Shown here: piece by piece, positions 11,137 through 59,575 of the stretch
Layout: each line of letters starts with the position of its first letter
Numbering within the stretch: position 1 is the stretch's first letter
Assembly: GCF_004010195.1 (NCBI RefSeq)
Contig: NC_057753.1
Span: forward strand, 4,748,887 to 4,812,886
Direction: 5' to 3'
Length of the DNA: 64,000 bases
Source: Chiloscyllium plagiosum
Lineage: Eukaryota
Translations under genes and position numbers: made by a program
The notes under the pieces: generated by a model
Database searches by the model: none
Seen by the model: the letters and a program-made list of their open reading frames with translations, nothing else
Told to the model about the DNA's origin: nothing

Positions 11137-11330
11137 CGCCCCTCCCCCAAGTCCCTCCTCCCTACCTTTTATCTTAGCCCGCTTGGCACACCTTCCTCAT
11201 TCCTGAAGAAGGGCTTATGCCCGAAACGTCAATTCTCCTGCTCCTTGGTTGCTGCCTGACCTGCTGCGCTTTTCCAGCAACACATTTTTAAGCTCTGATC
11301 TCCAGCATCTGCAGTCCTCACTTTCTCCTA
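11137..11330 (+). mobile_element. Penelope-like element 3' end (family A)
   Basis: Contains hammerhead CTGAAGAAGGGCTTATGCCCGAAACGTC and tail GATCTCCAGCATCTGCAGTCCTCACTTTCTCCTA. Confidence 0.75.
11203..11230 (+). ncRNA. Minimal type I hammerhead ribozyme motif
   Basis: CUGAAGA-A-GGGC(UUAU)GCCC-GAAACGUC: conserved core, helix II, palindromic helix III ACGU; helix I weak. Confidence 0.75.
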
Positions 11331-19657: not shown

Positions 19658-19888
19658 CGGGAAGAAGAAAGTGAGGTCTGCAGATGCTGGAGATCAGAGC
19701 TGAAAATGTGTTGCTGGAAAAGCGCAGCAGGTCAGGCAGCATCCAGGGAACAGGAGAATCGACGTTTCGGGCATAAGCCCTTCTTCAGGAATCCTGAAGA
19801 AGGGCTTATGCCCGAAACGTCGATTCTCCTGTTCCCTGGATGCTGCCTGACCTGCTGCACTTTTCCAGCAACACATTTTCAGCTCTGA
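19658..19888. mobile_element. Palindromic PLE-derived element: 97-bp arms, 1-nt spacer, two hammerheads, 13-bp TSD
   Basis: 19694-19790 is the reverse complement of 19792-19888 with 1 mismatch; TCTGAAATGTAAA at 19645-19657 and 19884-19896. Confidence 0.9.
19788..19827 (+). ncRNA. Hammerhead ribozyme motif with a 6-bp helix I
   Basis: GGAAUC-CUGAAGA-A-GGGC UUAU GCCC-GAAACGUC^GAUUCU; mirror copy on the minus strand at 19761-19788. Confidence 0.8.
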
Positions 19889-46809: not shown

Positions 46810-48155
46810 ACATGATTTGGAGGAGCCGGTGTTGCACTGGGGTGTACAAAGTTAAAAATCACACAACATCAGTAGTCTAACAGGTTTATTTGGAAGCACT
46901 AGCTTTCAGAGTGCTGCTCCTTCATCAGGTGGTTGTGGAGTTTAAGATCATAAGACATAGAATTTATAGCAATAGTTTACAGTGTGATGCAACTGAAATT
47001 ATTTATTGAAAAAGACCTGGATTGTTAGGTCTCTCACCTTTTAGAATGACCATGTTGGTTTCAGTTCTTTCATATGTAAAGCCCGGAACGTTTTTTTTTA
47101 AAGTTACATTCTCATGTGAACTTTAACAACAGGTGTCATGCTCAATTGAACTAGAAAAATGTTTCAGAAGACCAGGTTATTGTCCAACAAGTTTATTTAT
47201 ATGCACTAGCTTTTGGAGCACTGCTCCTTTATCAGGTGGTTGTGGAGTATGATGAAGGAGCCTGATGAAGGAGCAGTGTTTCGAAAGCTAGTGCTTCCAA
47301 ATAAACCTGTTGGACTATAACCTGGTGCTGTGTGATTTTTAACTTTGTCCACCCCAGTGCAACACCGACATGTTTTAGAACATTGTGTGCTGGGCTGGGC
47401 TAGTAAATTGCACTGTCAGCGCCACCTGGTGTGAAGCTTAGGATCACTCTCTGCATCCTCTCACACACCACTCTACACTCATGCACACACATATACACTC
47501 TGTCTCACAGACACTCACAACCCACCATCCCAGACACACACACTCCTACAGATACACACACACTCACACCTGCACCCCCTCACAAACTTAGACAATCTAC
47601 ACTCACATACACACACATATACACTCTCCCACACTCACAACCCCTCACCCCAGACAGACACATAAACAAAGACCCACATGCACACTTTTACATATACGTT
47701 TGTGGAGTGAATTTGTACTTGCAGAGTTACATTGTACTTTGCTCAAAAACTGCATGAATTCATTACGATTCTGTTATCTCACTTTTTAGATTAGAATCAG
47801 ACTAAACATTATGGCACAGACAGAGAACACAGGGGGCTAACACCTTCAACTTATTGTCTGGCTAATACCAATTGTTACACTTAAACTGAGAATGTAACTT
47901 TTTAAAAAAAGTTTTGTGATTTACACATGAATGAAGTGAAACTAACATGGTATTTGAACAGATGAAAGACTCAACAAACAATCAAGATATTTTTCAATGT
48001 ATAATTTCAGTTACATCACACTGTAAACTTTCGCTATAAATTCTGTGCCTTACAATTGTGTGCTCCACAACCACCTGATCAAGGAGCGGCGCTCCGAAAG
48101 CTAGTGCTTCCAATTAAACCTGTTGGACTATAGCCTGGTGTTGTGTGATTTTTAT
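46810..48155. mobile_element. PLE family B compound insertion with four hammerhead motifs and a CA-rich tract
   Basis: Motifs at 46897-46931 (-, intact core), 47206-47240 (-, degenerate), 47262-47290 (+) and 48072-48106 (+, G8 to C); 46810-47150 and 47860-48155 are inverted copies. Confidence 0.8.
46897..46931 (-). ncRNA. Minimal hammerhead ribozyme motif (family B)
   Basis: CAC-CUGAUGA-A-GGAG cagca CUCU-GAAAGCUA^GUG; helix I CAC/GUG, palindromic AGCU. Confidence 0.75.
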
Positions 48156-48312: not shown

Positions 48313-49344
48313 CTAAACAACGTGAACTCGCTGGTGTGTCAGCAGGGTGGATGAACGAGTGAATTCCTTCCCGCACTCTGAGCAGGTGAACGGTGTCTCC
48401 CTGGTGTGAGCTCGGCGGTGTCTCAGCAGGTTGAACGACCGAGTGAAGCTACTCCCACACTCACGGCAGGTGAATGGTCTCTCTCCGGTGTGAACTCGCT
48501 GGTGTTCTGTGAGCTGAGATGACCGCCCGAACCCAGTCCCACAGTGAGAGCACATGAATGGTCTCTCGCCAGTGTGAGTCCTTTGATGGGACGTAAGTTC
48601 CCCAGCACTTTTATAGCTTTTCCCACAGCCTGTACACTTAAAAGGTCTCCTGTCAGTGTGAACCCGGTGGTGTTTCAGTAAGTCAGACGATTGAGTGAAT
48701 CTTCTCCCACACATGGAGCAAGAGAACGGTCTTTCCCCAGTGTGAACTCGCTGGTGTACAGTTAATTGAGATGAGTGCCTGAATCTAGCCCCACATTGAA
48801 TGCATCTGAATGGTCTCTCATTAGTGTGAACACGCTGATGAGACATCAGTTCCCCAGAACTTTTAAAGCACTTCTCACAGTCTGGACATTTAAAAGGTCT
48901 CTCCTTAGTGTGAACCCGCTGGTGTATCAGCAGATGGGATGACGTACTGAATCCTTTCCCACACTTGGAGCAGGTGAATGGTCTCTCCCCAGTGTGAACT
49001 CTCTGGTGTATCAGCAGGGTGTGAAAGTGAGCAAAATCCTTCCCACACTCAGAGCAGGTGAACAGCTTTTCTGCAGTGTGACTGCGCCGGTGAATTTCCA
49101 GTTCGGATGGATAATTGAATCCCTTCCCACAGTCCCTACATTTCCATGGTTTCTCCCCAGTGTGACTGTGCTGATGTGTTTCCAACTGGGATGGGTAAGT
49201 GAATCGCTTCCCACAGTCCGCACATTTGCAGGGCTTTTCCCCGTAGTGAATGCATTTGTGTCTCGACAAGCCAGATGATCGCTTGAAACCTCGCCCACAC
49301 ATAGAACATCTGTACGGTTTTTCTCCGCTGCCTTTATCTTCCAT
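48313..49344 (-). CDS. ZNF-5: C2H2 zinc-finger protein, 12 fingers
   Basis: 343-aa ORF, ATG in CTGAACATGG context; acceptor ATTTCACAG before 49557. Confidence 0.94.
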
Positions 49345-49395
49345 GTTCAGAACCCAATGATACTCAAGTTACAGTAAATTGGGTAATTCTGGCAG

Positions 49396-49489
49396 AGCTG
49401 AAAATGTGTTGCTGGAAAAGCGCAGCAGGTCAGGCAGCATCCAAGGAACAGGAGAATCGACATTTCGGGCATAAGCCCTTCTTCAGGAA
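49396..49489 (-). mobile_element. 94-bp PLE family A insert with a hammerhead in the predicted ZNF-5 5' UTR
   Basis: TSD AATTCTGGCAG at 49385-49395 and 49490-49500; CUGAAGA-A-GGGCUUAUGCCC-GAAAUGUC on the mRNA strand. Confidence 0.88.
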
Positions 49490-49799
49490 AATTCTGGCAG
49501 ATCCTGCTGTGACGTTCGCTTTGAGCTTCTCAACTAGAATTCTTCTGTGTTGAATATCTGTGAAATGATTTAAAACAGTGAGAGAGGGTGCACAGAAACA
49601 CAACGGCAGAAACAAAAACAGAGAATGCTGGTGAGGCTTAGCAGGTCTTGCAGCATCTGTAAAGATGTTTCTGCATCTTTCTCCAGACGCTTTCAGATCT
49701 GCAGGGTTACTCCAGCATTTTGTGTCTTTGTTCCAGACTTCCAACACCTGCAATTCTTTCTTTTATTAATGCACGAAGGTCGTCGTACCCTAATGCCAA

Positions 49800-50820
49800 T
49801 GGATGAGATTTGGATGTGAAGGACTGATGCAGCTTGATGGACAAAGTTGTGTCCACTCTGAACAATGGCCAGCAAGCTCCGCCCACTCATTCCAAACATT
49901 GCCCCCTACAAAAATGGCGATTGCACTGCCGCCCCTATCCTTAATGCCCGTATCAAAGATGGCGATCGTCCCGCTCTCAATGGAGGGATCCTGTTTGGTG
50001 CAAACGGCGTGGGAAGAATCAGGAGATGCTTATTCGGGTTCGAGGTGTTTCCGAATTCAGTCCACTCACCCACTGCCCCGTCCAACGCAGAGGCCGATCA
50101 ACCCAATTTCTCACCGATGGTAAATCCGACAGACCCAACATTTTATTCCCCTTTTTGTTACAGATCATTGGCAGTCCAGGGGAAGCGAGAGTGACCACGC
50201 ATGCGTCGACTGTGGCACCGGATCGGGGAGCCACTGGTCAGGGACAGGTCCTCCAGCCAATCGGGGTGAGCCTGGGGCAGGCCCTCCATCCAATCGAAAT
50301 GGATCTAGTACAGGTCCGCCAAGCAATCGGCGTGGTTCTGGGGAAGGTTCTCCCGCCAATCGGCGTGGACCACGGGCAGGTCCTCCAACCAATCGGGGGG
50401 GGGCACGTCCGCCAATAATCGGATTGGGTCTGAGGTAGGTCCTCTAGCCAATCAGGAGCGGGTCCCCCAACCAATCGGCGTGGGTCAGCTGTGCGCGGCA
50501 CGTGACCGTCCGCACTCAGCGCGCAGCCGCGGTGCCGACGCAACGGAAGCCTGGTTCCAGAGCGAGAGTCGAGGGAGGTGGGAAAGTCGGAGAAACATCG
50601 CAGACCGTGTGGGCAGTGAAGTCAGTGTGGGCCTGGAGGATTGATAAGCACGTGGTGAATGTCGCTAGACCCGAGTTAGAAGCTCCCGGTTGCAGGAACG
50701 GGCAGGGGACGTGTTTCCATCGCCATTTTTCTCGGGGGCAACGGTCCGGGAGAGGCTCGTGCGGCCGCCATCTTTGTAGGGGGCAAGGTGTAGAAGGGCG
50801 CATCCGCAGGGCTTCCTTTG
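49800..50820. promoter_or_regulatory. CpG island, bidirectional promoter of ZNF-5/ZNF-6 with a CCAAT array
   Basis: CCAAT at 50257, 50290, (GCAAT 50323), 50356, 50389, 50412, 50448 and 50471; outward-facing YY1 elements at 49800-49965 (-) and 50720-50790 (+). Confidence 0.85.
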
Positions 50821-50959
50821 TCAAGTACCTGGTGTTGTGTGATTTTTAACTTAGAAGGGGAAGATTTGCACACAGCAATCTGAAACCAAGTTCGTGCCTT
50901 CTGGGTTTCTAACTTGGATTGACATTGAATGTTTTCACCTGTTGTAATCTCCTTTCCAG

Positions 50960-51099
50960 AGGGTATGAAATGAGAAGGATTAGCAGACAGGAAACCCAAA
51001 ACAACCAACACGTCTCAGGATCTGATTCGATTTATCAGGATCTGGCTACCTGCCAGACTTTGACAGTATGAAAAGAAAAAGCTTCGGGAAAGACTTCAG
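50960..51099 (+). other. Predicted 5' UTR exon of ZNF-6
   Basis: CCTTTCCAG| acceptor, AGACTTCAG|GTATGG donor; paralog of 5547-5690. Confidence 0.6.
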
Positions 51100-52020: not shown

Positions 52021-52276
52021 TGTGTGGTATATTCCCTTCTCTGAAGGACATTAATGAACCAGTTGAGTGTTTATAGCAATTCAGGTACTTCCCTGGTCCC
52101 TTTTCTTTCCCTAGTGCTGTTAGCACAGATTACTAGTTTGATTCAGCTCAATTTTGAAAATTTCCTTTGTGATTTTGTGGATTCTCTCACTGTTCCTTTT
52201 TTCCCCATTTCACAGGATGTTAGAGGGTGAAGATTTATATTTGGAAAACGTAAATTAAATATCAAATCAGAATCTG

Positions 52277-58944: not shown

Positions 58945-59575
58945 GGTTTGGGCCGTCTATTTAGGGAAGGATGGGCTGGGCTTTGGAGGGGATCCTGAGG
59001 AGGTTTGCAAGAATGATCCTGGGGTTGAAGAGCTTGTCATGTGAGGAGCAGCTGAGGATTCGGTCTGTACACAGTGGAGTTTGGAAGGATGACGTGGTCA
59101 TCTCATTAAAACTTACAGAATACGGAGAGGTCTGGACAGAATGATTGTGAAGATGATGTTTCCGCTCATAGGAGAGCCTCAGAGTGAAGGGGATGAGCCT
59201 TTAGAACTGACATGAGGAGGACATTTCTCAGCCAGAGGGCTGTGAATCTGTGGAACCCATTGCCACCGAAGGCTGTGGATACCATGTCATTGAGTGTCTT
59301 TAAGTCAGAGATACGTAGGTTCTATATTAGCCAGGAGACCAAGGGTTACAGGGAGAAGGCAGGAGAATGGGTTTGAGAAACGTAGCCATGGCAGAGCAGA
59401 CTTGATAGGCCAAATGGTCTATTTCTGTGCCCGATGATGGTTCCTGATGAAGGGCTTTTGCCCGAAACATCGATTTTCCTGCTCCTCGGATGCTGCCTGG
59501 CCTGCTGTGCTTTTCCAGCAGCACTCCAATCTCCAGCATGGGCAGTACACACTTCTGCCTATTTCTGTTCCCGTA
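58945..59575 (+). mobile_element. CR1 3' end with a nested PLE hammerhead fragment (59434-59558)
   Basis: CUGAUGA-A-GGGC UUUU GCCC-GAAACAUC at 59444-59471; 15-bp TSD CTATTTCTGT.CCCG at 59419 and 59559. Confidence 0.8.

Follow-up and report, generated by a model that had tools for sequence, protein, structure and literature searches.

A young Penelope-like element fragment with a decayed minimal hammerhead motif in the 5' UTR of a shark zinc-finger gene

Exon 2 of a 12-finger C2H2 zinc-finger (ZNF) gene of the shark Chiloscyllium plagiosum carries, in sense orientation, a short piece of a Penelope-like element (PLE) with a hammerhead ribozyme motif, and this is a verified exonic insertion of a known kind of element. 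On balance, we favour the view that a young Penelope 5' fragment lies in sense in a spliced ZNF 5' UTR, that its hammerhead cleaves little or not at all and that the upstream AUGs (uAUGs) brought with it lower translation somewhat. A preliminary description had proposed that the TE fragment down-tunes the gene by self-cleavage; judging from the sequence, down-tuning is plausible, but a new upstream open reading frame (uORF) would be a likelier route to it than the ribozyme. Positions refer to the window, by which we mean the whole stretch of 64,000 nucleotides that was analysed (NC_057753.1, 4,748,887 to 4,812,886) in a genome of 3.56 Gb, and which is filled by a cluster of C2H2 zinc-finger genes.

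Gene structure and site of insertion

The ZNF open reading frame (ORF) occupies 48313..49344 on the reverse strand, encodes 343 aa with 12 fingers and is partly covered by contigs from three relatives, organisms A, B and C. On this frame, zinc-finger families were the only Pfam matches over the cut-off, with no other domain. Ahead of it, also on the reverse strand, lie the 5' UTR part of exon 2 (49345..49557), which measures 213 nt with the insert and 108 nt without, a 512-nt GT..AG intron (49558..50069), and exon 1 (50070..50179, with a provisional 5' limit), which has two older uAUGs at 50168 and 50141, both stopping at 49536. The splicing is seen in a 336-nt contig of organism B, a single contig whose RNA status was predicted by a tool, which joins 49147-49384, 49490-49558 and, over 29 letters, the last part of exon 1 (50071-50099); it displays both the splice from 50070 to 49557 and the absence of exactly 105 nt. 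Runs X1 and X2 are likewise RNA by the tool's guess, and X15 and X19 carry no RNA or DNA label. The acceptor at 49557 is intact in the window, and its use in organism B supports the earlier placing of the insert in the 5' UTR, between this acceptor and the ATG at 49344. Furthermore, the window has a TAA at 49371 in frame with the ATG and ahead of it, which is found again in the loose-end letters of organism B; since this stop precedes the ATG, the insertion site is 5' UTR.

The orthologous contigs diverge from the window by ~3.2% in organism B and ~1.1% in organism C. The differences listed for the ORF, which do not serve as a test of selection, comprise for organism B at least five synonymous changes, a kept stop and at least four non-synonymous changes, and for organism C at least two of each kind. 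The leaders of 11 ZNF paralogues, a set from which two more candidates without an acceptor match were excluded, measure 84-145 nt compared to 213 nt here. Upstream of the gene, between exon 1 and the contig-covered 50529-51000, the sequence at 50241-50475 has a tandem array with a 33-bp unit (4.7 copies), together with eight CCAAT boxes, and this region is likely a bidirectional promoter common to this ZNF gene and the one at 52259. In organism C, the intron is longer by an insertion of 13 nt at window position 49988.

Insert, target-site duplication and age

The insert spans 93 bp (49397..49489, reverse strand) and covers +2 to +94 of a Penelope-like pseudo-LTR (pLTR), counted from its 5' end. 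It is flanked by a 12-bp target-site duplication (TSD), with the 5' copy at 49490..49501 and the 3' copy at 49385..49396 (both reverse strand), which is present as a single copy at the empty site of organism B. This is the longest flanking duplication and, together with the 93 bp, it gives a total gain of 105 bp, identical to that of the 94-bp insert and 11-bp TSD described previously but with different boundaries. The first four nucleotides of the 3' copy also match the element, its last four (TCTG) being common to element and duplication, and this overlap may represent priming microhomology. Five paralogous leaders align across the position without the insert.

Presence or absence across relatives had been suggested as a check and was followed in the contigs. 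The insert is absent in organism B, whereas in organism C an unbranched contig from 49117 to 49422 (run type not on record, unique intron parts uncovered) crosses the 3' junction and both AG sites of the insert. The 3' part of the insert is there contiguous with the exon, and cover stops short of the 5' junction and of the altered helix III letter described below. In organism A, the contig of run X1 stops at 49380, before the junction. No contig of the insert-bearing organisms spans the hammerhead. Since organism B is empty and organism C has the 3' junction, this contig comparison dates the insertion after the split from organism B and probably before the split from organism C. The closest relatives of the ZNF copy within the family differ from it mainly by a CpG change.

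All three organism C runs, the large DNA-sized X17 included, are without cover at 49497-49549, and X15 and X19 have no cover of exon 1. We considered this hole as a sign of cleavage and rejected it, because filters can make holes; it would reflect either the filtering or a rearrangement that is specific to organism C and lies directly upstream of the insert. In raw single-cell reads of X21 (~2% of the run), the gene-specific flanks of the insert are uncovered and no pile-up of read begins or ends is seen.

The Penelope-like family and its copy number

The Penelope origin suggested earlier is supported. At locus L082 a 767-codon frame with reverse transcriptase (RT) motifs is followed, after 111 nt, by a copy 95.7% identical to the insert, and at L079 an 893-aa frame with an RVT_1 match over the cut-off (E=6e-8) is followed by a sister copy at 89%. 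The L079 frame also displays a GIY-YIG match just below the cut-off (E=3.5e-4, 21.2 bits against 22.6). Copies that keep their native upstream flank are positioned directly after the end of an ORF, and at the family level we place the motif in the pLTR of a PLE whose single ORF combines RT and GIY-YIG. Two short PLE fragments gave no Pfam domain match, and the atlas look-alikes of L029, which include GIY-YIG in 11% of members, are taken as a lead only.

A sample of 40 stretches of 10 kb, evenly spaced and with 376 kb readable, contained 57 family ends, which corresponds to 152 per Mb, and the density around the window is 176 per Mb. At least 90% identity to a natural reference copy was found for 21 of the 57 (56 per Mb). 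Genome-wide, with head-to-head pairs entered as two, this would give about 5e5 family ends and about 2e5 at 90% identity or more. Within the window, a head-to-head pair of the same subfamily at 19699-19883 is 97-98% identical to the insert, and more family copies lie at 11200-11288 and 59441-59524. On contig C44, ~57 kb to the right of the window end, another ZNF gene has a sense copy of a sister family with a damaged core; considered as a second leader case, this copy was rejected, being ~190 nt upstream of the predicted acceptor.

Out of 25 ZNF ORFs (464 kb), the present one is the only one whose leader exon contains a family end. The number of sense insertions expected in 25 ZNF leaders is 0.21-0.24 (P about 0.2), an estimate that leaves aside selection against exonic insertions such as is described for related retrozymes in Xenopus (bioRxiv 10.64898/2026.07.22.740005). 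Given that family copies are so numerous, one occupied leader in 25 is within chance, and the location displays no sign of targeting or selection. The hammerhead motif itself is, from the copies compared, a family feature and no chance match.

The starts of the copies bear on the state of the inserted RNA. In the spaced sample (L031-L070), 37 of the 57 copies start within -4..+6 of the apparent first base of the element, 7/57 extend into native upstream sequence and none (0/57) starts at the hammerhead cut. Hence the RNA that is inserted seems to be mostly uncleaved, and the ZNF insert would have arisen by target-primed reverse transcription, with uncleaved element RNA as the template. In native copies, position +1 of the element is preceded by TCATTC, which we take to be an initiator-like motif.

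The hammerhead motif and its need for a partner

The motif is a minimal type I hammerhead running from C3 at 49486 to C17 at 49459 on the reverse strand, with a predicted cut between 49459 and 49458, 114 nt ahead of the ATG and close to the distance of about 115 nt estimated before. The sense layout already described was confirmed from the letters: the core CUGAAGA is followed by an extra A between positions 9 and 10.1, by helix II (GGGC-UUAU-GCCC) and by GAAA-UG-UC. All nucleotides of the conserved core (C3-U-G-A-N-G-A9, G12-A-A, A15.1, U16.1, H17) are intact and G10.1-C11.1 is present. Helix II has 4 bp with pair probabilities of 0.985-1.0, and its loop varies among family copies. Over 48500-50500, no hammerhead family of Rfam matched at E up to 10. 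At helix III, the palindromic 15.2-16.2 is lost, the ZNF copy reading AUGU where ACGU stands in 13 of the 15 copies of the spaced sample whose core is intact; CpG decay at this place accounts for one TG and one CA among these 15. From its letters, the ZNF copy is a decayed member of the minimal hammerheads (min-HHR), with the same motif.

The hammerhead fold cannot be drawn in a monomer, because helix III would take a 2-nt loop, and a second copy is needed since helix III has no loop. This agrees with the earlier statement that minimal PLE hammerheads often require dimers, and with the single S. mansoni motif, for which cleavage was undetectable, dimers giving low levels (Cervera and De la Pena 2014, PMC4209133). 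Helix I has two contiguous pairs, a 3-nt bulge and four host pairs (AGAA/UUCU), the usual length being about 4-5 bp. The youngest subfamily (L031, L041, L045, L079, L080) pairs AUUC/GAUU with a U-U mismatch and a sister subfamily (L024, L065) has a full AUUC/GAAU. The bulged helix I that the preliminary description proposed with host AGAAU can be drawn, but in the free monomer its distal G-C pair has a probability of 0.016, and the best fold of this monomer has C3-G5 paired to host CAG. In a dimer, the active site would combine the core and the 5' helix I arm of one molecule with the cleaved strand of the other; because the partner supplies the 5' helix I arm, the host AGAAU arm would help to cut the ZNF mRNA in a homodimer only.

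No compatible in-cis partner was found between exon 1 and a point 2.5 kb beyond the stop, and the only other sense motif in this interval has helix III AGCU, which is unable to pair with AUGU. A second PLE-type hammerhead family with helix III AGCU is seen in the window at 46928 (reverse strand), 47262 (forward) and about 48075-48105 (forward), and the last of these copies, with its altered core, runs antisense to ZNF transcription. The intron contains a palindromic repeat at about 49600-49740, whose GAAACAUC could pair with AUGU; it was rejected as a partner because no hammerhead core was found in it.

Energy estimates were made for the possible pairings. The helix III duplex is worth -3.1 kcal/mol for native/native, -1.3 for ZNF/native and +1.2 for ZNF/ZNF, a penalty for AUGU of 1.8 kcal/mol when the partner is normal and 4.3 when both strands carry it. 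The proposal that the ACGU to AUGU change weakens helix III and adds an AUG therefore holds, and the change is ordinary CpG decay. Double hammerheads, built by hand with nearest-neighbour energies and without tertiary contacts or protein help, cost over the free monomers +11.5 kcal/mol for ZNF/ZNF, +9.8 for ZNF/native, +8.8 for native/native and +3.0 for the sister subfamily with its full helix I, so that the ZNF homodimer is the least favourable dimer modelled. The open, dimer-ready fold ranks 2/54, at 1.6 kcal/mol, in a ±50-nt context and lies at 4.4 kcal/mol in the spliced-UTR model, in which the 5' end of exon 1 is assumed. With no in-cis partner and with ZNF dimers the least favourable, self-cleavage as the main effect, which had been proposed at first, appears unlikely from these models; cleavage would be low for a motif that cannot close helix III alone.

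Upstream AUGs in the leader

TE-derived uORFs in host 5' UTRs are a known kind of event, and here too a mobile-element fragment supplies leader uAUGs. The insert adds uAUGs at 49472, 49463 and 49440 to an exon 2 leader that has none at the empty site; the one at 49463 had been pointed out before, but the two others and the uORF geometry were overlooked. AUG 49463 was made by the CpG change and has the best context of the three, with G at -3. The main new uORF (49347..49472, reverse strand) has 41 codons from 49472 or 38 from 49463, is out of frame and stops 2 nt upstream of the main AUG, and a second one (49369..49440, reverse strand) has 23 codons, is in frame with the main ORF and stops at the TAA at 49371-49369. 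Since reinitiation falls with uORF length and requires intercistronic distance (PMC5972666), scanning ribosomes that start at the 38/41-codon uORF would likely be lost, the distance to the main AUG being 2 nt.

The translational cost of the insert is nevertheless likely to be mild, and the effect may be small, given contexts (CUU-AUG-C, GAA-AUG-U and UGG-AUG-C, compared to AAC-AUG-G at the main start) that are graded weak to moderate. Moreover, three of the 11 paralogous leaders tolerate uAUGs, in one or two short uORFs, and exon 1 already has its two older uAUGs if transcription starts above 50168. On the other side, 8 of the 11 paralogous leaders are without uAUG. These points also bear on the possibility, which we find rather doubtful, that the insert is a neutral passenger, with no cleavage and no change in protein, the ribosomes scanning past the three AUGs. 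The weak to moderate contexts, an occurrence that fits chance and the toleration of the insert in at least two close organisms are what such a passenger would display, but a 38-codon uORF with a purine at -3 and a stop so near to the main AUG speaks against it, as does a modelled leader that is more stable with the insert (-83 kcal/mol, 323 nt) than without (-55 kcal/mol, 218 nt).

U6 chimeras and cleavage in trans

A lowering of translation through the uORF, which is the reading we prefer, leaves a place for rare cutting of the leader, and junctions with U6 suggest, indirectly, cleavage of element RNA in related subfamilies. In two of 30 U6 loci fetched (48 matches), U6 passes straight to a family element that starts with the first base past the predicted cut. 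A search with one such junction gave 30 loci, and 10/11 of the best 11 of 30, which were inspected, have U6 junctions. Counting an inverted pair and an identical duplicate once each, the U6 junctions represent 8 distinct places (L090/L154, L107/L155, L156/L158, L157, L159, L160, L161 and L163/L164), with U6 3' ends at GUC^GA, and in every junction the U-tail of U6 is followed by element sequence that begins precisely with GA. The inspected chimeras are all from sister or older subfamilies and none is from the young subfamily of the ZNF copy (best 48/53 identity, the query being sister-type); the one at L160 begins with the same GATTCTCC as the ZNF copy. The junctions fit ligation of U6 to the cleaved end, as a possible mechanism, and suggest indirectly that this type of PLE ribozyme cuts in germ cells, for element RNA in its own context and in sister subfamilies.

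Because family RNA is very abundant in RNA-like runs, trans partners exist, and Penelope RNA, perhaps with the PLE protein as a chaperone, could complete a double hammerhead with the ZNF leader, the cap being lost when the element is active. We regard this recast form of the earlier idea as improbable. The core nucleotides of the ZNF copy are all intact, its local fold is open, a heterodimer would be about 1 kcal/mol worse than the native homodimer and the U6 chimeras mark sister-subfamily cut sites, but none of those inspected is from the young subfamily, whose own helix I has a U-U mismatch, no genomic copy (0/57) starts at the cut and the locus is without sign of selection or targeting. The published systems speak on both sides as well: the Anolis PLE hammerhead cuts in vitro, only with PLE protein, but the account given there has uncleaved RNA as the main insertion substrate and no RNA-seq reads ending at the site (Frangieh et al. 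2024, PMC11167929), and dimers in cis cleave at a low level (PMC4209133).

It is quite improbable that the mature mRNA of insert-bearing animals lacks the hammerhead through use of an acceptor or start site inside the insert, for although pyrimidine-AG sites occur at 49412 and 49397 and no contig of these organisms was seen joining exon 1 to 49557, the unbranched organism C contig crosses both AG sites and the window keeps the 49557 acceptor that organism B uses. Least probable of all is that the ZNF mRNA acts as a Penelope sensor whose leader is cut when element RNA and protein complete the double hammerhead. If true, this would either decap the mRNA of a possible TE repressor or allow cap-independent translation with two uAUGs removed, and would represent a ribozyme-mediated link in trans from a retroelement to a host defence gene. 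An anti-TE role of this ZNF, in which no repressor domain is recognised, is a guess: among animals, ZNF counts follow TE content, and in zebrafish TEs are repressed by FiNZ-ZNFs (PMC10547256), in a report whose main text has no mention of sharks, cartilaginous fish or Penelope.

Comparison with known systems

With a decayed hammerhead that would cleave little or not at all, the ZNF copy resembles the min-HHR of PLEs in its type I core, the extra nucleotide after A9, G10.1-C11.1 and the absence of loop 3 (PMC4209133). These are described as mostly solo copies of truncated PLEs, present in thousands per genome in fish, coelacanth and frog, counts far below the copy numbers estimated here for the shark. 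The ZNF copy differs from them by the lost 15.2-16.2 palindrome, the 2-bp contiguous helix I and its location in a host mRNA leader, and no compatible second copy in tandem was found on the same RNA within the interval given above. PLE hammerhead dimers are also treated by Lunse et al. (RNA Biol), as cited in a review (PMC6765202). As in the Anolis Poseidon PLE (PAc), the hammerhead is at the pLTR, the substrate is uncleaved and 3' ends are clustered ('tail'), but the ZNF motif is separated from the ORF region proposed to bind the PLE protein (PMC11167929).

The rodent Clec2 hammerhead (Ryder 2010, PMC2950038) likewise sits in a host mRNA UTR and is able to lower expression; it is in the 3' UTR, conserved in several mammals, and brought a reporter down by 80%. 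In contrast, the ZNF hammerhead is 5', young, dimer-dependent and absent in the 3%-diverged organism B, whose spliced contig makes the site exonic, the hammerhead itself being unspanned by contigs. Closer in position are the 5' UTR hammerheads of chrysoviruses and fusariviruses (Lopez-Galiano et al. 2026, PMC13725137), which are type I and upstream of the start codon; their cleavage occurs both in vitro and in vivo, and they promote translation that is independent of the cap. Because of this last property, a cut in the 5' UTR need not silence, and in the ZNF leader it would also take away two of the three new uAUGs. In our search, outside which most subscription papers lie, neither a PLE hammerhead in the 5' UTR of a host gene nor PLE hammerheads of sharks came up in any title or abstract.

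Do the abundant minimal PLE hammerheads of animals ever cut host RNAs? The ZNF locus is a clean natural test case for this question, with a spliced 5' UTR, an exact empty allele in a relative, one weakening change and effects of uORF and ribozyme that are separable. If no cutting occurs, the ZNF insert would be one passenger among several hundred thousand. If cutting occurs only with element RNA or protein, PLE-rich genomes would hide an activity-dependent mRNA cleavage.
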